A stretch of 64,000 bases of DNA from Nitrospirales bacterium (GCA_022825885.1 JAJDVY010000033.1:10067-74066), one strand, 5' to 3'. Shown: positions 3,707 through 14,591, numbered from the stretch's first letter. The notes: a model not told the origin generated them from the letters alone. Translations and numbers: made by a program.

Positions 3707-4003
3707 TTAGCGAACGGCGACTCGCAACCCGCCGGCTGCAAGTTTTTGGGCTATCGTTTCAGCCGTCTTCTGAGTTCCTTGGTAGACTTGGGCGTTTCCG
3801 TGATGGTCGATCCGCCAAGCCAGCTCAAAGGCTTTGGACGAAGTCATACCGGGAATATACCGACAAAACAAGTCGATGACTTGTTGATACGTGTGACAAT
3901 CGCAATTATACACGATCACCTCAGCTTCAAAGTCACGGTCGGCACCCTGACTGGTTTCCTGTTCCGTGACTTCCGTCACTTCTGCGGCGGGAAGATTGCT
4001 CAT
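3707..4003 (-). CDS. clpS: ATP-dependent Clp protease adaptor ClpS-like protein
   Basis: 98 aa. The core VIVYNCDCHTYQQVIDLFCRYIPGMTSSKAFELAWRIDHHGNAQVYQG..ETIAQKL matches the ClpS fold pattern (VILxNDxxxxxxxV..L......A......H..G.A.V). Confidence 0.6.
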   Translation of the reverse strand: MSNLPAAEVTEVTEQETSQGADRDFEAEVIVYNCDCHTYQQVIDLFCRYIPGMTSSKAFELAWRIDHHGNAQVYQGTQKTAETIAQKLAAGGLRVAVR

Positions 4004-6498: not shown

Positions 6499-7674
6499 AT
6501 GACGAGAGTCACTGATTTCAAGAAAACCCTTGGGCGGATTCCGCTTGAAGGTCTGGGCGTCTACGTGCACGTTCCCTTTTGTCGGGTGCGTTGCCGGTTT
6601 TGCGCGTTTTATATGGAACGGCCAGGAGCAGACCGCGTTCAAGCGTTTATGGACGGGGTGGCGCATGAACTTCACCTGTATGCCCATGCACTGGGACTCC
6701 GCAGGATTCCGGTACAAACGATTTATTTTGGAGGAGGAACTCCGACGACGCTGACTTCGCAGCAACTCATTTTGATCTTGAATAACATCCGATACTGGTT
6801 TGCGGTTGAAGACGATGCAGAGTTGTCCATAGAAGTGCATCCGGGTACGGTCACTCCCGAGAGCCTTGGAACCCTCCGGCAAGCCGGGTTTACGCGGCTG
6901 AGCGTGGGGGTGCAATCGTTTGACCGGAATGAACTCCGGGAGTTGGGAGGACGAATGTTTGGCGGAGGAGTCGGGCAAGCGATTGCCTGGGCGCGGTCCG
7001 CGGGCTTTACGGATATTTCACTTGATTTGATGTACGGTTTTCCCGGACATTCGATGGAATCATGGCAACGGACTCTGGACGAAGCTCTGGCTCTTTCACC
7101 CACCCATCTCTCCTGTTATGCCTACACGTTGGAAGAAGGATCGCCGTTTCATCGGGAAATTGTGCAGGGAAAGGGATCAACGCCGGGCCAGGAATTTCAG
7201 GTGACCCTGGAAGAGAGAGCCATCGAACGTTTGGTCGCTGCAGGATTTGAGCGATACGAAATTTCCAATTACTGTCGGCCCGGGTATGCCTGTCGTCATA
7301 ATATGCGGTACTGGCAAGTCCGGCCTTATCTCGGACTTGGTCCGAGTGCGCAATCCTGTCTTGGCCATATCCGGTTTGGAAACGTGGCAGATTTGGAAGG
7401 GTATGCCGATTCCTTGAAGAGAGGAGCGTTGCCAATGGACGAAATCACGTGTTTATCCCCTGACCAGGTAGACCGTGAACGGGTTATATGGGGTTTGCGG
7501 ATGTTATCCGGAGTACCGGTCAGGATGAAAGCAACGGAGCAGAAAGCGGCCTTTCTCCAAACAATTCACCGATTGGGAGAGGAAGGGTTGTTGCGAGTCG
7601 AAGGGCAGGGACGAGTGCGATTGACCGATCTGGGTATTCGTTATGCTGATACCGTGGCTGTGGCATTGCTGTGA
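6499..7674 (+). CDS. hemW: Radical SAM heme chaperone HemW / oxygen-independent coproporphyrinogen oxidase-like protein
   Basis: VYVHVPFCRVRCRFCAFY carries the CxxxCxxC cluster motif. The GGGTPT block is present. The 391-aa length fits HemW better than HemN. Confidence 0.8.
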   Translation: MTRVTDFKKTLGRIPLEGLGVYVHVPFCRVRCRFCAFYMERPGADRVQAFMDGVAHELHLYAHALGLRRIPVQTIYFGGGTPTTLTSQQLILILNNIRYWFAVEDDAELSIEVHPGTVTPESLGTLRQAGFTRLSVGVQSFDRNELRELGGRMFGGGVGQAIAWARSAGFTDISLDLMYGFPGHSMESWQRTLDEALALSPTHLSCYAYTLEEGSPFHREIVQGKGSTPGQEFQVTLEERAIERLVAAGFERYEISNYCRPGYACRHNMRYWQVRPYLGLGPSAQSCLGHIRFGNVADLEGYADSLKRGALPMDEITCLSPDQVDRERVIWGLRMLSGVPVRMKATEQKAAFLQTIHRLGEEGLLRVEGQGRVRLTDLGIRYADTVAVALL

Positions 7675-7810
7675 AATAACCGCATTCCGTTCTTCCCGAC
7701 GCGAGAGATCGGGAATCCGGCGATTCAAGTGAATTGCACGAAAAATAGGCAATCCATTTGAGAGCCCATGGTTTCTGAATGGATGGATCTTATCAACATG
7801 TTCGTCCACA

Positions 7811-8079
7811 TGTAATTAATAAAACTTGAGGAAAGAATCCCATATTTTCCTCTAATTCAAATACGCCAATAAAAATTACTGTATTAATTTAATTATTGAA
7901 TAAAACTTATTGTATAAAAAGATTATTAATCTTGTACAAGATGGAATGAATTTCAGGCATGGTCGATCAAAGTCCAAATAGTTTCAATGACAGCATTGAA
8001 GCTGTTATTGATATTTTGAGAATATTATCAACAGCAATAAATGAGGCATTTGATGTCTGGATAATTCAAGAGAATGGTT
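7811..8079. other. Extremely AT-rich non-coding island
   Basis: No ORF of 60 aa or more. Positions 7861-7920 contain only 9 G/C in 60 nt, and the flanking genes are far more GC-rich. Confidence 0.8.
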
Positions 8080-8601
8080 TCACGTGTTCCATAATGCCTT
8101 GAAACCCCACAGGATCAAGGCAAGCGTACCAATGGAAATGCCAAACGTCCCTGCCAGCAATCCAATGGCGAACAGCCAGTCTCCGGGAGTCGCGTGGGTT
8201 GTTCGTTTACTGGTATAACGCCGCAACAATCTCGCATTTTTCAGGTTGCTTCGAAACCAGATTGAAAACGCGTCGCCGAGGCCGGGAATGGTGCCAATCA
8301 GGGTGTTGACCCCCATGTTTAAGGCCATCCTGACGACCACGATTTTAGGTACTTGAAGTTTGACGGCGAGGAGCAGAATTGTAGACCCAATAAAATTGGC
8401 GATCCAGTCACCGAGCCCCGGAATGAGCCCCAACAGGGCATCCAATCCGACCCGGATGGAAGTGCCGGGAATATGCACGACTGAATCGAGCAGGCGAGCG
8501 AGAGAGTCAGCGGAATCGCGCAGGGCTTCTCGTTGCCGTTCCTGTTCGTCGTCGAGAACGGGCTTTGCGTGTTGTTGAGGAAAAGCGGAGTCGTCGGCCA
8601 T
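8080..8601 (-). CDS. DUF4112 domain membrane protein
   Basis: Duplicated IPG(L/T)GD motifs (LIPGLGDWIANF.. and TIPGLGDAFSIWFRSNLKNARLL), characteristic of DUF4112. Hydrophobic segments are present. Confidence 0.65.
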   Translation of the reverse strand: MADDSAFPQQHAKPVLDDEQERQREALRDSADSLARLLDSVVHIPGTSIRVGLDALLGLIPGLGDWIANFIGSTILLLAVKLQVPKIVVVRMALNMGVNTLIGTIPGLGDAFSIWFRSNLKNARLLRRYTSKRTTHATPGDWLFAIGLLAGTFGISIGTLALILWGFKALWNT

Positions 8602-8727
8602 GGAATTTCAAGGACAATGGATGCGGGATTGTTTTAACAAAGCGGGCGCTTTGTCAAGACCCGGAGAAAGCCTTGCCGGCTTGGCGTACCCCAAACCGGC
8701 AGCGCCGCCCTTGCAGAACGTACGTCC

Positions 8728-10215
8728 ATGACCAGTCCTCGACATTCCACGCGTCTTTCCAAGTCCAGGTTTCTTTCAGGTCTGCAATGCCATAAACGGT
8801 TGTATTTGGAAATCCATGCCCCCCAGTTGGCCGCCGATATTGATGACCGGCGCCGGATGGTGCTGGATATGGGCAAAGAAATTAATGAAATCGCGCACAG
8901 GTATTTCCCCTGCGGCGTGTTGGTTGCCGAAGATCATCGTCATGCATCCGCTGCCCTGGAAAAGACGTCTGCACTGATGGCTGATCCGGACGTGCCCGCT
9001 ATTTTTGAAGGGGCGTTTCAATTCGAGGGGACGTTGGTCCGGGTCGACGTGCTTGAACGGGTCGATGGTGCCTGGAAGTTGATTGAAGTGAAGGCAGCCT
9101 CACGCGTGAAATCCGTCCACCTTGACGATCTGGCCGTGCAAACCCACGTGCTCCGGGGAAACGGCCTCGAACTGAACGGAATTTTTTTGATGCACGTGAA
9201 TCGACAGTATGCCTATCCCGGCGGGGACGTGGACCTGCAACGATTATTTGCGCTCGAAGACCTCACGGAGGCCATTCAGGAAAAACTGGCGGATATCCCT
9301 CCGCGCTTGGATGAGATGCACGCGATGCTCGGTGAAAGCCGTTCACCCGACGTCGAACCGGACCACCATTGTCACTCGCCTTACGAATGCCCGTTCTGGT
9401 CCCATTGTACGGCTGCCAAGCCGGCGCGGTGGGTCTATTATCTTCCCGGTCGTAAAGACCTTGTGCGCCGGTTGCGCCAACAGGGCGTTGAAACCATCGA
9501 CGAGATTCCCGTTCAGGTTTCTCTTTCGCATTTGCAACAACGCGTGCGGGAGAACGTGGAATGGATGTCGCCGAAGCTGGCGCAGAAGCTTCACTCGGTT
9601 CGGTATCCGGTTCATCATTTGGATTTTGAGACGGTGATGCCCGCGGTTCCCTTGTATGCCCACACGTATCCCTATCAGCCCATCCCGATTCAATGGTCGA
9701 ACCATACGGAATCGGAAGACGGTTCTTTGGGGCATACCGCCTATTTATGTGTCGAACACAAAGATCCGCGTGAAGAAATCGCCGTGAGTCTGTTGGAATC
9801 CGTCGGGGAAGAAGGTAGTATCTGTGTCTACTCCGAGTATGAACAGTATATCGTGAATGCCTTGGCCGAAGCCGTGCCTCGTCTGCGAAAAGACTTGCTT
9901 CGAGTCGGAGAGCGCCTTTGGGATCTCCTGGAAGTGCTGCAAAGCCATTATTACCATCCGGATTTTCAAGGGTCGTTTTCCATCAAATCCGTGCTGCCGG
10001 CTCTCGTCCCGTCGCTGGACTATGGCGACTTGGAAATCAAGGATGGCGCCACCGCGTCGGCAACGTATCATCGAATGATGTATGTCGTGACCGATTGGGT
10101 CGAGCGTCAACGCCTGGCATCGGCGCTGCTTGCCTATTGCGCGCGGGATACGTTGGGCATGGTGGAACTCCGCCGGGTTCTGGCTCAAAAAGCGCAGTCG
10201 GCGGCCCCGTCGTAG
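8728..10215 (+). CDS. DUF2779 domain protein with Cas4/PD-(D/E)XK-like nuclease N-terminal region
   Basis: The N-terminus LSKSRFLSGLQCHKRLYLE is typical of DUF2779. The Cys cluster C-x5-C-x5-C (HHCHSPYECPFWSHC) together with the N-terminal C resembles the Cas4/AddB-type Fe-S motif. Confidence 0.6.
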   Translation: MTSPRHSTRLSKSRFLSGLQCHKRLYLEIHAPQLAADIDDRRRMVLDMGKEINEIAHRYFPCGVLVAEDHRHASAALEKTSALMADPDVPAIFEGAFQFEGTLVRVDVLERVDGAWKLIEVKAASRVKSVHLDDLAVQTHVLRGNGLELNGIFLMHVNRQYAYPGGDVDLQRLFALEDLTEAIQEKLADIPPRLDEMHAMLGESRSPDVEPDHHCHSPYECPFWSHCTAAKPARWVYYLPGRKDLVRRLRQQGVETIDEIPVQVSLSHLQQRVRENVEWMSPKLAQKLHSVRYPVHHLDFETVMPAVPLYAHTYPYQPIPIQWSNHTESEDGSLGHTAYLCVEHKDPREEIAVSLLESVGEEGSICVYSEYEQYIVNALAEAVPRLRKDLLRVGERLWDLLEVLQSHYYHPDFQGSFSIKSVLPALVPSLDYGDLEIKDGATASATYHRMMYVVTDWVERQRLASALLAYCARDTLGMVELRRVLAQKAQSAAPS

Positions 10216-10241
10216 GCGGTTGCCATGAGTCAGGGGAAAAA
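10201..10241 (+). repeat. Direct repeat copy 1 flanking the PIN/UPF0175 cassette
   Basis: GCGGCCCCGTCGTAGGCGGTTGCCATGAGTCAGGGGAAAAA. The 22-nt core AGGCGGTTGCCATGAGTCAGGG (10214-10235) is identical to 11200-11221. It overlaps the stop codon of the DUF2779 gene. Confidence 0.85.
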
Positions 10242-10326
10242 TTCCGTTTTTGGGGAGCGTTATTGAAAACATTTGTATAATTTGTTAACTTGATGGCAAG
10301 GTAATGGCTGATGCTGTAGAGATGAG

Positions 10327-10842
10327 ATGATCGTAGCCGACGCTTCTCCGTTAATCGTTCTCGCCAAGCTCAAGTGTTTGGGGCTCTTGAACGGTCTCTA
10401 CGGAGAAGTGTTGATCGGACCGGTCATTAAATCGGAAACAATCGATTCGGGCAAGGCGATTAATGCTCCGGGGGTTGAGCAGCTTGAGGCCGCACTGGAA
10501 GCCGGGTGGTTACGAACGGTTCGCTTGACTGCACAGGAGCGTGGCCTGATGCAGCGCCTGACGAGACGCTCCCGTTTGGATCGGGGCGAAGCCGAGTCCA
10601 TTGCGCTCGCAAGTGGGCGGGACCTGCGACTGATTATTGACGATAAGGAAGGTCGAAGCGTGGCTGTGGTTGCCGAAGTAGAGCATGTGGGTACTGTTGG
10701 GGTCTTGTTGGAAGCATATTTGCAACAGTCTCTTGACTTGGGGGAATTCGAGACCACGCTTCGGGATCTCGGCCGGATCTTGTGGCTATCTCCAGCCGTC
10801 GTAGCGGAAGTCTTGAGACTCGCACGGGAGGCAAAGACGTGA
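10327..10842 (+). CDS. DUF3368 / PIN-like nuclease (type II toxin candidate)
   Basis: The N-terminus IVADASPLIVLAKLKCLGLL.LYGEVLIGPV is typical of the DUF3368 PIN-like family. It is paired with a UPF0175 gene. Confidence 0.7.
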   Translation: MIVADASPLIVLAKLKCLGLLNGLYGEVLIGPVIKSETIDSGKAINAPGVEQLEAALEAGWLRTVRLTAQERGLMQRLTRRSRLDRGEAESIALASGRDLRLIIDDKEGRSVAVVAEVEHVGTVGVLLEAYLQQSLDLGEFETTLRDLGRILWLSPAVVAEVLRLAREAKT

Positions 10843-11177
10843 AAAAAGAACGAATGGTGGGCACTAGGCTCCCCTTGGAGTTGCTGAGTGAGTTGGAACT
10901 CATCGAAGACGTTGAGCAGTCCGATCGCTCAACCACCGTACGCCGGTTGCTCTCGAAAGCAATCCGGCAATGGAAGTTCGATCACTACGTCCGGCTGTAC
11001 GGGGAGGGGAAACTCACCATGGCACGGGCTGCTCGCGAGGCAGGGGTATCCTTGTGGGAGATGATGGATTATGCCCGCACCGCAAAAATACCGGCCCAAT
11101 ACGACCTCGAAGATCTTCAGCGAGACGTGGGAATGATCTACGGAAGTCTGAACCAACAGTCAATTTGCAAGAAGTGA
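10839..11177 (+). CDS. UPF0175 family protein (antitoxin candidate)
   Basis: GTG 10839 overlaps the upstream stop TGA (GTGA). The segment ..LYGEGKLTMARAAREAGVSLWEMMDYARTAKIP.. is the typical UPF0175 HTH-like segment. Confidence 0.7.
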   Translation: MKKERMVGTRLPLELLSELELIEDVEQSDRSTTVRRLLSKAIRQWKFDHYVRLYGEGKLTMARAAREAGVSLWEMMDYARTAKIPAQYDLEDLQRDVGMIYGSLNQQSICKK

Positions 11178-11186
11178 AGATCGAAT

Positions 11187-11227
11187 GCCGCCCCGTCCCA
11201 GGCGGTTGCCATGAGTCAGGGAAAAAA
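11187..11227 (+). repeat. Direct repeat copy 2 flanking the PIN/UPF0175 cassette
   Basis: GCCGCCCCGTCCCAGGCGGTTGCCATGAGTCAGGGAAAAAA. It differs from copy 1 by 3 substitutions and 1 indel. Confidence 0.85.
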
Positions 11228-11348
11228 GTAGAATCTCTTTTTCTGTCAATCACTTGAGTGTGCCAGGGGGATTGAGTCTTGGTATGACCGTCCCTTCCTC
11301 CCTTCCCTCAAACATGCTTCCTGACTCACACGGTAAAGATACTCTTGG

Positions 11349-11798
11349 ATGATGCGAATCTTGGTGTTGCATGGCCCTAATCTGAATATGCTTGGGGTCC
11401 GCGAGCAGGAGACGTACGGGGACCAGACCCTTGAAGCCATCAATGCCCGGCTCATGGAATTGGCGAAGGCCGAAGGGGTCACCCTTGAGGCAAGACATTC
11501 GAACGGCGAAGGCGAACTGGTTTCGTGGATTCAAGAGGCCCGAGGCCAATTCGATGCGATCGTGATCAATCCCGCGGCCTATACGCATACCAGCGTTGCC
11601 CTTCGGGATGCCATCTTGAGTGTGACCGTGCCGACGGTTGAGGTGCATTTGTCGAATATTCACCAACGGGAGGAATTTCGCCAACGTTCCTACTTGGCGG
11701 GAGTCGCTATCGGCCAGATCAGCGGCTTTGGGGTATTGAGTTATGAACTGGGTGTTCGGGCGGCGATCGACCACGTCAGAAAGGTTCAGGACAAGTAG
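11349..11798 (+). CDS. aroQ: Type II 3-dehydroquinate dehydratase
   Basis: The motifs [39 protein letters not shown] and EVHLSNIH are canonical for AroQ. Confidence 0.92.
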
Positions 11799-11847
11799 GC
11801 AGCAAGCCGGCATGACAAGAGAGAATCATCGTGATACGCGTGCCACT

Positions 11848-11930
11848 GTCATCCTGAACGAAGTGAAGGCTCTCGTTTTTATATATATGCGTTTGTAAAA
11901 AAGCCGGATTCTTCGCTACGCTCGGAATTG
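11848..11930. repeat. REP/MITE-like hairpin element, family A (GTCATYCTGARCGAAG..GAAG..TCTC)
   Basis: The arm GTCATCCTGAACGAAGTGAAGGCTC (11848-11872) is imperfectly complementary to GGATTCTTCGCTACGCTCGGAATTG (11906-11930). A related copy lies at 62779-62846. Confidence 0.7.
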
Positions 11931-11973
11931 TATATGTTCACTCATTCGTTGACACTTTCTGTTGTCTCCTGCT

Positions 11974-12035
11974 GTCATCCCCGATCCTCGATTAAGAACG
12001 TCAAGGACAGGCTATTGTTAATCGGGAATCCGGGG
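11974..12035. repeat. REP/MITE-like hairpin element, family B
   Basis: GTCATCCCCGATCCTCGATTAA (11974-11995) pairs with TTAATCGGGAATCCGGGG (12018-12035). A related half-site, GGATTTCCGATTAA, lies at 37482-37495. Confidence 0.65.
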
Positions 12036-12088
12036 TTCTGTTCAAGACTGTTCCTTATGAATGGAGGGGCAGAAGAGAAAGGCACTGG

Positions 12089-12108
12089 ATTCCCGCGTGT
12101 GCGGGAAT
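12089..12108. repeat. Short perfect palindrome (REP-like)
   Basis: ATTCCCGC-GTGT-GCGGGAAT has 8-bp perfect arms. It has the same architecture as ATTCCGGG-CTTGA-CCCGGAAT at 37424-37444. Confidence 0.7.
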
Positions 12109-12194
12109 AACCGATTCGGGGTCTTTGCATACCAATGACGGGTATGATGTGGCAGGCTCTTATTTTTTATTGTTAGAGAAAGGATACGGAAATC

Positions 12195-12758
12195 GTGATT
12201 TCAACCGCAGAGTTTCGAAATGGCGCCCGGATGGAATTGGATGGCGCGCCGTATTATATCGTGGAATTTCAACACGTGAAACCGGGCAAAGGTGGTGCGT
12301 TTGTCCGGACCAAGTTGAAGAATTTGAAAACCGGTCAGGTGTTGGAGAAGACGTTTCGGTCAGGTGAAAAGTTTGACGAACCGGATCTGGAAGAATGCGA
12401 GATGCAATTCCTCTATGCGGCCGGTGAGTCCTATACGTTTATGGATACCTCCTCCTATGAGCAGTTCACTTATCAAAAGGATCAACTTGGCGACGATACC
12501 GACCTGCTCAAAGAAAACGCGACGGTGGAAATCCTGCTCTACGAGGGCGTCCCCATCTCCATGCTTTTGCCGATATTTATGGAGTTGAAGGTCGCGGAGA
12601 CGGACCCGGGGGTTCGAGGCGATACGGCTTCGGGAGGCACAAAGCCTGCGAAGGTTGAGACCGGAGCGACCATCAAAGTCCCGTTATATTTGGAAACCGG
12701 TGAGGTGATTAAAGTCGATACCCGGACACGGGAATACGTCGAACGCGTCCGGTCGTGA
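12195..12758 (+). CDS. efp: Elongation factor P
   Basis: ISTAEFRNGARMELDGAPYYIVEFQHVKPGKGGAFVRTKLKNLKTGQ is canonical EF-P. GTG start. Confidence 0.95.
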   Translation: MISTAEFRNGARMELDGAPYYIVEFQHVKPGKGGAFVRTKLKNLKTGQVLEKTFRSGEKFDEPDLEECEMQFLYAAGESYTFMDTSSYEQFTYQKDQLGDDTDLLKENATVEILLYEGVPISMLLPIFMELKVAETDPGVRGDTASGGTKPAKVETGATIKVPLYLETGEVIKVDTRTREYVERVRS

Positions 12759-12761
12759 AAC

Positions 12762-13214
12762 ATGAACAGCGAACAACGAAAAGAAATCCAGGATCTGGTT
12801 GAAATGCTGAACCGGCAGAATTTGAACGAGATCGAGGTTCAACGCGGGGACGTGCGTATCCGGGTCCGGCGTGAATCCGGTACCACGTCGAATGTCCAGG
12901 CGTCTTCTTCCGCGGAATCCGGTCAAGCTCCTCAACCGACCGTAGACGTTGTGGAAAAAGATGTCTCTCGTTTATTGACGGTCACCTCACCCGTTGTCGG
13001 GACTTTCTACCGCTCATCGTCTCCCGATGCCGAGGTCTACGTGGAAGAAGGTGACCTGGTAAGCCGGGGGCAAGTTCTGTGCATTGTCGAAGCCATGAAA
13101 CTGATGAACGAAATTGAATCCGAAGTCGATGGGCGAGTCGTCAAGATCCTGGTCGAGAATGAGGCGGGCGTGGAATATGGGCAACCCTTGTTTGCTATCG
13201 ATCCTCTTTCGTAA
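12762..13214 (+). CDS. accB: Acetyl-CoA carboxylase biotin carboxyl carrier protein
   Basis: C-terminal biotinyl domain with CIVEAMKLMNEIESE (AMKM/L motif). It sits immediately upstream of accC. Confidence 0.92.
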   Translation: MNSEQRKEIQDLVEMLNRQNLNEIEVQRGDVRIRVRRESGTTSNVQASSSAESGQAPQPTVDVVEKDVSRLLTVTSPVVGTFYRSSSPDAEVYVEEGDLVSRGQVLCIVEAMKLMNEIESEVDGRVVKILVENEAGVEYGQPLFAIDPLS

Positions 13215-13241
13215 GTCCCGTTCGCTTCACGAGGAAATTCC

Positions 13242-14591
13242 GTGTTCAAAAAAATCCTGATTGCGAATCGCGGAGAAATCGCCCTGCGTATCGTCCGTGC
13301 CTGTCGGGAACTGGGGATCAAGACGGTCGCCGTCTTTTCCGAAGCCGACGCGTCCACTCTCTACGCGCGCCAAGCGGACGAAAGCGTGTGCATCGGTCCG
13401 GCCGACAGTGCCTTGAGCTACCTGAATGTTCCCAACGTGTTGAGCGCGGCGGAAATTACCGGGGCCGATGCCATCCATCCCGGATACGGGTTCCTGGCGG
13501 AAAATGCGCATTTTGCCGAGGTCTGCGAATCCGTCGGTATCACGTTTATCGGTCCGGCCTCCGAACACATTGCTCTGCTGGGCGACAAGTCCAAGGCTCG
13601 AGAAACCATGCTCCGGCATGGGATCCCCGTCATGCCGGGCAGCGAAGGTGAACTGCAAAACCTTGATCATGCCGTCCATGTTGCGAACAAGCTCGGATAC
13701 CCCGTGATGGTCAAGGCTTCGGCCGGAGGAGGAGGACGGGGCATGCGGGTCGTCAGTCGTGAAGCCGAGCTGGGGAAGGCCATTTTATCGGCCCAGGTGG
13801 AAGCGCGGACGGGCTTTGCTCACGACGGCGTCTATCTTGAAAAGTTTTTTCCCGAACCCCGGCACGTCGAAATTCAGGTGTTGGCCGATGAACACGGGCA
13901 CGCGGTTCATTTGGGAGAGCGAGACTGCTCGATCCAGCGCCGCTACCAGAAATTGGTGGAGGAATCCCCGTCACCCGTCGTGGATGATTCCTTGAGAAAG
14001 GAAATGGGGAACGTTGCCCTCAAGGTGGTCAAGGCCGTGAATTACCGGAACGCGGGGACCGTGGAGTTTTTGCTTGATCAAAATCAAAAGTTTTACGTGA
14101 TGGAAGTCAACACCCGGATCCAAGTCGAACATCCGGTTACCGAAATGGTCACCGGCATTGATTTGGTCAAGGAACAAATTCGCGTGGCCGCGGGGATGCC
14201 GCTGCGATTTCGACAGAAAGACGTGCGGTTGCAGGGCCACAGTATCGAATGTCGAATCAATGCGGAATGTCCGGAAACCTTTGTCCCGAGTCCCGGCGTC
14301 GTTTCGCGTTTTTACGTGCCCGGGGGCGCGGGGATTCGCGTGGATACGGCCTTGGAAGCGACGGAACACGTGCACCCCCACTACGATTCTCTCATCGCCA
14401 AGTTGATTGCGCACGGCCAGGATCGTGCGGATGCGCTGGCCAAGGCTCAACGCGCACTCGACGAGTTTGCCGTGGAAGGGATCAAGACAACGATCCCGTT
14501 GCAACGGCTCATCATGCGTGACCCCGACTTTCAAAAAGGCGGCGTATCCACCAATTTTCTGGATCGGTTGTTAGCCGGCCGTATGCTGTAG
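13242..14591 (+). CDS. accC: Acetyl-CoA carboxylase biotin carboxylase subunit
   Basis: [26 protein letters not shown], an ATP-grasp region ([10 protein letters not shown]), and 449 aa long. Confidence 0.95.

Follow-up and report, generated by a model that had tools for sequence, protein, structure and literature searches.

The spread of toxin-antitoxin (TA) modules that carry no mobility genes is poorly understood. COG2405/DUF3368 proteins are VapC-group PIN toxins, with UPF0175 (COG2886) as their exclusive helix-turn-helix partner (PMC5499597; PMC2701414). Restriction-modification gene complexes are described to undergo insertion with long target duplication, a process that proceeds with no mobility genes and sometimes overlaps the 3′ end of a gene (PMC2853133). 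In addition, homology-facilitated illegitimate recombination, which leaves orphans behind, has been invoked for the orphan arrays of type VI secretion system (T6SS) and Rhs loci (PMC5361080). Here, a stretch of 64,000 nt from a Nitrospirales bacterium (GCA_022825885.1, JAJDVY010000033.1:10067-74066), the whole of which is hereafter called the window, was analyzed around a COG2405/UPF0175 module that lies between a DUF2779 gene and aroQ and is flanked by a direct repeat duplicating the 3′ end of the DUF2779 gene. The second copy of the repeat is probably an orphaned gene end that arose when the host recombined a module-bearing allele with an empty one.

The repeat and its immediate context comprise the following features:

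8728..10215, forward strand: the DUF2779 gene, source of the duplicated 3′ end (Pfam PF11074, E = 8e-36)
10186..10241, forward strand: repeat copy 1, comprising the last nine DUF2779 codons, the TAG stop (10213-10215), and a 26-nt decayed hairpin
10242..10262, forward strand: spacer linked to the left side of the module, homologous in L094, L097, L113, and G043 (TTCCGTTTTTGG..AGCG)
11161..11167, forward strand: the novel junction J1, where the conserved end of the module meets the orphan DUF2779 tail
11168..11227, forward strand: repeat copy 2, an orphan DUF2779 3′ end followed by the hairpin

The initial annotation had described a repeat at 10201-10241 and 11187-11227 with a 22-nt core, and the repeat is real: 37 of the 41 positions are identical, and the core, AGGCGGTTGCCATGAGTCAGGG, is exact in both copies (10214-10235 and 11200-11221). 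The three substitutions and one indel given there are replaced by four substitutions in an ungapped alignment over the 41 nt. Within 10201-10241, copy 1 does include, as had been stated, the end of the DUF2779 gene, namely its four final codons and the TAG at 10213-10215. Local alignment carries the homology leftward to 10186 and 11168, for a total of about 56-60 nt, with indels of +1 and +3 nt in copy 2 relative to copy 1; the score of this extended alignment is 63, against 18 +/- 2.4 for the shuffled null. At J1, the homology to genus members G003, G043, and L094 and to the unrelated genome L090 stops at 11158-11164, and the homology to the tail starts at 11165-11168.

The 22-nt core matches twice in the window and not once in 100 shuffles. 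Across the whole assembly (2.38 Mb in 50 contigs, with the window at C32:10067-74066) it is present only as these two copies, a result that also settles the question, raised with the initial annotation, of whether it belongs to a dispersed repetitive extragenic palindromic (REP) sequence: with two copies only, it does not. Other matches to the repeat in the genome span 10-17 nt, the best of them (14-17 nt) being chance-like. A 21-mer scan of metagenome contigs returned three unrelated soil contigs sharing only the 21-mer, as chance matches, and the same scan with the 21-nt core found no conspecific empty site. The repeat folds no better than shuffled sequences (z = -0.17, 0.19, 0.29, and -1.82), a terminator scan of the repeat region found none, and a search of Rfam gave no match for the repeat.

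Two classes of repeat were discarded on these grounds: a dispersed REP sequence or miniature inverted-repeat transposable element, given the two genome copies only, and a REP-like, attC-like, or terminator structure, given the outcomes of the fold, terminator, and Rfam analyses.

The DUF2779 gene is followed by aroQ in all 38 species representatives of the genus. The spacer between the two genes is empty in 35 of them, measuring 56-274 nt and, in one case, 647 nt, so that the module is an accessory insert in this genus. Most empty spacers comprise (i) one copy of the tail, (ii) a hairpin or REP element, and (iii) the promoter TTGACC-17-TAGAAT, several short alleles lacking some of these parts. 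At least 30 genus genomes can be aligned over the left flank and the single copy, and copy 1 of the window is colinear with the single copy of the empty-site relatives. Among the 38 representatives, only the window genome, G003, and G043 carry the module, and these three do not form a clade in an efp+accC tree; further genus contigs with the module are L089, L094-L097, L108, L112, and L113. The spacer at 10242-10262 is homologous between the window and the four lineages listed above, so the left junction is inherited.

Copy 2 is, by this comparison, restricted to the species of the window. Six conspecific contigs, obtained from several samples of one metagenome study and 97.7-100% identical to the window, display the same arrangement wherever they cover it. 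Both repeat positions are spanned by four of them (L083, L085, L086, and L087), all occupied and with copy 2 present. The other two also carry module sequence and reach a single copy each, namely copy 2 in L084, which begins within the antitoxin gene, and copy 1 in L088, which runs out at 10850. Copy 2 keeps the ancestral TAG in L083 and L087, at the place of CAG in the window, and L084 has retained GTGCAG there, the window reading GTGAAG, with the antitoxin stop, at this position; copy 2 therefore reproduced the gene end faithfully at its origin. The second copy is absent in G003, G043, L094, L097, and L112, which have the same homologous left junction and right borders that all differ. Although placed on separate branches about the window genome, G003/L094 and G043/L112 have in common, right after the module, ACA(G/T)CGGAG... 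(ACAGCGGAGCGG), so that copy 2 of the window is derived. No decayed copy of the tail follows the module in G003 and L094 (p ~0.7), and in G043 and L112 the sequence after the module shows a weak extension beyond the REP match only.

The bases of copy 2 give further indications of its source. It is nearest to copy 1 of the same genome (the score of 63 given above), with tails of relatives reaching at most 49, and the two copies share lineage-specific bases (CCATGAGTCAGGG). Nevertheless, copy 2 keeps genus-ancestral bases (AAGTG, GCCGCC, and GTCC) where copy 1 changed. Its hairpin has the form TCAGGG, as in module alleles, most empty alleles displaying TCAAGGAAC instead. On its right side, copy 2 adjoins the native -10 box of aroQ, and about 77 nt of the G009/G017-type empty alleles, with the -35 box, are missing.

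The locus is a mosaic of cross-species recombination, as the identities of the DUF2779 body and of the 5′ half of the toxin gene do not match each other: the former amount to 87.0% for window-L094, 87.0% for window-G003, and 95.5% for G003-L094, and the latter to 95.7%, 83.1%, and 85.0%, respectively. Comparison of the module-bearing G003 with its empty sister G017 discloses DUF2779 genes 95-100% identical, save for the final 100-nt segment, where identity is 89%; the differences, judged by eye, lie in about the last 90 nt of DUF2779, and the two sequences are near-identical again from the -35 box. This pattern is typical of allelic replacement through homologous recombination. The high window-L094 identity in the toxin gene marks an interspecies recombination tract inside that gene (L094:670-1185 compared with window 10327-10580). 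Vertical inheritance with repeated loss, suggested at first by a module divergence resembling that of the hosts, was dropped in view of the L094 mosaic tract and of G003 versus G017.

Other lineages carry orphan tails at the same locus. In L108, a complete DUF2779 gene with a REP-type tail is followed by two REP elements and then, before the module, by a 45-nt orphan DUF2779 tail, which has a stop and a hairpin, stands in the native context of hairpin, spacer, and module, and matches the genuine L112 tail at 91% identity. L113 has a similar, decayed design, with the orphan tail to the left of the module. In L097, the module breaks off at window position 11147, and what follows it duplicates the "stop + REP" of a REP-type allele; in L089 the module has a REP element plus about 15 nt on its left and again on its right. 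Duplicated gene ends are accordingly common here and differ in extent, side, and sequence by lineage, a distribution that fits scars of allele recombination and not a conserved att site.

The preferred account joins these observations as follows. The module sits in the DUF2779-aroQ spacer in a minority of genus lineages, and alleles that carry or lack it are exchanged between species through homologous recombination in the conserved flanks. Recombination between a module-bearing allele and an empty allele would have been resolved at one end by homology, in DUF2779 or aroQ, and at the other end illegitimately, at J1, a short way beyond the antitoxin gene, the displaced DUF2779 end persisting as the orphan copy 2. 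The pathway would be the one termed homology-facilitated illegitimate recombination (gene-end displacement); the same end product would result from a Campbell-type crossover within the tail or from a tandem duplication plus deletion. The module may have been either the incoming or the resident partner, and the 77-nt deletion may have preceded the event. The T6SS effector-immunity, Rhs, and contact-dependent inhibition loci (Kirchberger 2017, PMC5361080) share with this locus (i) a conserved 5′ anchor gene with a variable 3′ region, (ii) a join by homology on one side and an illegitimate join on the other, and (iii) a decaying downstream orphan, the orphans being lineage-specific. The anchor differs, as it is here a housekeeping-type DUF2779 gene and an intergenic hairpin rather than a polymorphic toxin gene; moreover, the orphaned stretch is short, at about 60 nt, the cargo consists of a TA module, and we infer the pathway from the anatomy alone.

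Several points weigh against this account. No conspecific genome without the module was found that would show the donor/recipient pair and the direction of the event. A model with one junction would need the hairpin to abut the -10 box (the 77-nt deletion), or else a second event. The empty allele that fits it would read ...GTCCTAGGCGGTTGCCATGAGTCAGGGAAAAAAGTAGAAT... / end ...CAGGGAAAAAAGTAGAAT, making the right side of copy 2 native, and such an allele was not seen in the 38 species representatives or in the extra genus loci examined. In addition, the divergence between the copies is uneven, with 0/22 differences in the core versus about six substitutions and two indels in the left 34 nt, a pattern that could reflect gene conversion of an older duplication. 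Finally, L089 looks as if the module had inserted cleanly and duplicated about 43 nt of target (REP + 15 nt), which would fit duplicative insertion.

Gene-end displacement would overlap in part with insertion with long target duplication (PMC2853133), according to which a recombinase-free duplicative entry of the module, in the ancestor of the species or of the genus, made the repeat, and other lineages lost or overwrote copy 2. The resemblance to the restriction-modification complexes (Nobusato 2000; Furuta, Abe and Kobayashi 2010, PMC2853133) is considerable: an addiction-type gene pair with no mobility gene nearby is bracketed by genome-unique direct repeats (>30 bp) that extend over the 3′ end of the preceding gene and occur as a single copy in the empty sites of relatives, with a repeat of 41 nt here (56-60 nt with indels) and an insert consisting of the TA pair only. 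The portable unit is tightly bracketed, its distance from the repeats being 21 nt on the left side and 0-7 nt on the right, the shared lineage-specific bases would be expected if both copies came from one recipient sequence, and in L089 both flanking copies are in native context. We consider this origin rather unlikely all the same, as copy 2 lacks its native right context (the missing 77 nt include the -35 box) and, unlike in the restriction-modification insertions, is not contiguous with empty-site sequence. The duplication is also absent in five lineages with the same left junction, two distant ones of which share a different sequence after the module; 9 of 10 other module loci lack a flanking duplication; and L108, which is related to L089 and has its right junction in common, reveals a secondary rearrangement on the left side of L089. 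The cargo differs as well, being a TA module here and not a restriction-modification system. A later intrachromosomal event, after the module had arrived in the genome, appears improbable. It would consist either of a tandem duplication from tail to module followed by deletion of the second module, or of a double template switch copying about 60 nt downstream of the antitoxin gene, the product being kept as it restored the aroQ promoter. Such an event would account for the closeness of copy 2 to copy 1, for its module-allele hairpin, for both of its junctions being novel versus all relatives, and for a -35 box created at exactly 17-nt spacing. It would, however, require either a pair of novel junctions or two events in succession, none of the genomes showed an intermediate such as paired tandem modules, and the ancestral bases in copy 2 that are derived in copy 1 are easier to explain with two alleles.

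The proposal of the initial annotation, that the repeats are an insertion footprint or an att-like site of a mobile mini-cassette, meets with further difficulties. Copies 1 and 2 would then be attL and attR, the recombinase would be encoded elsewhere, and the cassette would be excised as a circle, as in cis-mobilizable elements (CIMEs) or integron cassettes. Direct repeats sharing an identical 22-nt core reach over a gene 3′ end here, as repeats do at many att sites, and the small cassette has no recombinase of its own, features shared with CIMEs, recombinase-less att-flanked elements, and integron cassettes. We judge an att-like origin very improbable nonetheless, since (i) the core occurs nowhere else in the genome, is not beside the module at 13 other loci, and is absent from the genus members with the same insertion, five lineages with this left junction having no copy 2; (ii) copy 2 abuts the aroQ -10 box with about 77 nt missing, which is not the context expected of an empty site; (iii) no significant fold (z from -0.17 to -1.8) and no Rfam match were obtained, and the repeat is not conserved among carriers, whose tail duplicates differ in extent and in side of the module; and (iv) all conspecific contigs covering the site are occupied. 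No cognate integrase was identified for the cassette, and no recombinase open reading frame (ORF) was found in 7000-14000, a check of which the IS110 element elsewhere in the window was not part. Of the "site-specific or duplicative event" first suggested, the duplicative part stands and the site-specific part finds no support, with no recombinase nearby, no structure, and a core that is not shared; nor is the repeat supported as the footprint left when the module first inserted. Relatives carrying both repeat copies without the TA genes, which would have spoken against an inserted pair, were looked for, and none was found among those compared.

Beyond the origin of copy 2, a wider idea can be put forward tentatively, and we hold it to be doubtful: TA modules, like restriction-modification systems, might move or persist by recombinase-free host recombination that duplicates or orphans the ends of neighboring genes. 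Loss of the module would be lethal (addiction), so that replacement by an empty allele would survive only with an illegitimate join just outside the module. If this were true, flanks would be trimmed to the minimal unit, gene-end duplicates would be left on either side, and the window, L097, L108, and L113 would represent four independent footprints of addiction-biased recombination at one locus. Taken alone, the feature of the window is an ordinary recombination scar beside a known TA family without an experimental record. The genus, on the other hand, offers a natural series, with at least two types of empty allele, module alleles, orphan ends on either side, and interspecies tracts inside the module, and this series suggests that recombination by the host, homologous and illegitimate, serves as the vehicle in place of a dedicated recombinase.

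The module itself comprises a predicted control region and two genes:

10263..10326, forward strand: predicted promoter/operator region of the module (TTGAAAACATTTGTATAATTTGTTAAC), where the homology to L090 starts; kept in all genus copies
10327..10842, forward strand: VapC-like PIN toxin of the COG2405/DUF3368 group, 171 aa, assigned by predicted fold and conserved acidic residues
10839..11177, forward strand: UPF0175 (COG2886) antitoxin, 112 aa (Pfam PF03683, 36.5 bits versus a cut-off of 27.9)

Its boundaries are set by L090, in which nucleotide homology (77%) spans exactly 10263-11164 and the antitoxin gene has the native stop, ...AACCAA-TAG. Together with the 35 empty sites among the 38 representatives, this exact correspondence bears out the earlier description of the TA pair as a discrete cassette. 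The segment 10263-10326 (TTGAAAACATTTGT.AATTTTGTTAAC) would act as the promoter of the module. Searches detected 355 homologues of the toxin; the 120 listed are 56-95% identical, and the hosts named belong to Nitrospirales, Latescibacterota, Acidobacteriota, Nitrospinota, and Gemmatimonadota. The toxin-first module occurs in at least five other phyla at 64-78% protein identity, recurring as the same unit of a 171-aa toxin, a 4-nt overlap, and a 104-108-aa antitoxin. With a predicted promoter of its own, the module (10263-11164) is self-contained, spans about 0.9 kb, and has spread across several phyla. At other loci the cassette does not bring the same repeats with it: the flanking repeat is absent at 9 of 10 other module loci, and the core has no match at 13 other module loci (68 kb in total).

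A phage or plasmid vehicle was considered and rejected: a phage search gave no hits, and plasmids carry only distant homologues, with 26-41% identity.

Elsewhere in the genus, a decayed second copy of the module was observed in G043 (L043:4016-4242; C1 ~1654100) beside a DEAD-box helicase gene, as a remnant comprising the toxin C-terminus and the antitoxin N-terminus. An intact module also lies near a DEAD helicase gene at L109:2501-3336, with a toxin 81% identical to that of the window. The DEAD helicase neighborhood of G043 and L109 may represent a second insertion site.

As the initial annotation had it, the two TA genes are the only ones between the copies, 10327-10842 and 10839-11177 being the sole credible genes there, overlapping at GTGA. 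The AlphaFold2 model of the toxin (predicted local distance difference test, pLDDT, 96) shows a PIN fold. A Foldseek search with this model retrieved VapC4 (5h4g; template modeling score, TM, 0.62-0.75) as the best match, followed by many other VapC/PIN structures, including 2mdt, the COG2405 representative. D5, E88, E90, D105, and D106 are invariant among 33 homologues. In hmmscan, the toxin reaches 16 bits with Pfam DUF3368 (PF11848), below the cut-off of 27.3 (E = 0.011, residues 122-166 only), and precomputed tables assign PF11848 to the whole cluster of the toxin and to its homologues. A sequence search of the PDB returned nothing for the toxin or the antitoxin.

The antitoxin gene starts with GTG, overlapping the toxin stop, and its final codons and stop lie within copy 2; in G003, the start is ATG at the same position, and the 4-nt overlap between the genes is also present in 10 other loci. 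The antitoxin model has a pLDDT of 63, and its N-terminal extension of about 45 residues may form a ribbon-helix-helix domain. Compared with the COG2405/UPF0175 family at large (Makarova 2009, PMC2701414; Matelska 2017, PMC5499597), the pair shares the VapC-group PIN fold, the conserved acidic residues, and the adjacent same-strand UPF0175 partner with a 4-nt overlap, a pairing reported as exclusive for UPF0175. It differs in the sub-threshold Pfam score of the toxin, in the longer antitoxin of the subfamily (104-108 aa, with the N-terminal extension), and in gene order. The order had been called reversed, which is true relative to the two cyanobacterial plasmid UPF0175/DUF3368 pairs checked, where the antitoxin comes first; yet it is constant across this subfamily, 10 of 10 other loci displaying the toxin-first order, the 4-nt overlap, and an antitoxin of 104-108 aa. 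By its composition, 10327-11177 would encode a type II TA module of a toxin-first subfamily. We found no experimental work in the literature on the COG2405/UPF0175 pair of this subfamily.

Outside the genus, the native antitoxin measures 104-108 aa and ends at ...AACCAA-TAG. Within the genus, this stop is mutated to CAG, CGG, or CAA, so that the antitoxin frame reads into whatever follows the module, with ORFs of 112 aa in the window, 118 aa in L089, 121 aa in G043 and L112, and 200 aa in G003 and L094. In the last two (L098:3013-3615 for G003; L094:1182-1784 for the L094 lineage), the readthrough adds about 87 aa (MSIWKLEPKDT...) to give the 200-aa product. The extra 87-aa segment of G003 has no Pfam match; in both lineages it could be a third gene or a fusion. 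Three-component COG2405 systems are mentioned in the PIN classification (PMC5499597).

To the right of the module, two features concern the present role of copy 2:

11206..11234, forward strand: hybrid promoter of aroQ, TTGCCA-17 nt-TAGAAT, with the predicted -35 box from copy 2 and the native -10 box
11349..11798, forward strand: aroQ, a type II 3-dehydroquinate dehydratase gene forming the right flank (Pfam PF01220, E = 5.5e-58)

Copy 2 supplies the stop codon of the antitoxin and would supply the -35 box of aroQ. TTGCCA-17-TAGAAT is the only promoter-like site in 10100-11450, agreeing with the consensus at 10 of 12 positions, and relatives have TTGACC-17-TAGAAT at the homologous -10 box. 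The duplicated gene tail thus appears co-opted, providing an antitoxin stop codon and a predicted -35 box for an essential gene of the shikimate pathway. In the conspecific contig L084, position 208 (window 11177) reads TGC instead of the antitoxin TGA, and the frame runs to the TAG at 11229-11231, in the -10 box; the antitoxin is about 18 residues longer there, and some of the added residues repeat the DUF2779 C-terminus (AAPS).

The aroQ leader (11235-11348, about 115 nt; CTCTTTTTCTGTCAATCACTTGAG...CCCTTCCTCCC...) is conserved in most of the genus and has no match in Rfam. In G004, G023, G041, and G042 (L016, L035, L045, and L046), the aroQ promoter and this conserved leader are deleted, leaving a spacer of 56-57 nt from the DUF2779 tail to the start of aroQ, and aroQ must consequently be transcribed differently in these genomes. 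A REP-like palindrome, (G)TAGGTCGGATTAGCGAAGCGTAATCCGAC, often starts at the DUF2779 stop and follows the antitoxin gene in several genus members, with sites at L089:2863-2896, 3842-3875, and 3927-3950, in the spacers of G002, G007, G013, G018, and G046, and at L042:4498-4529; none is present at this locus in the window genome. The N-terminus of the DUF2779 protein gives a weak match, below the cut-off, to TIGR03491 (RecB-like putative nuclease, TM0106 family; E = 2.8e-8). Finally, the spacer between aroQ and efp (11928-12140) contains dispersed repeats of about 70-200 nt, with copies 79-94% identical on further contigs of this genome (C40, C30, C6, C42, C34, and C18) and in many genus genomes.

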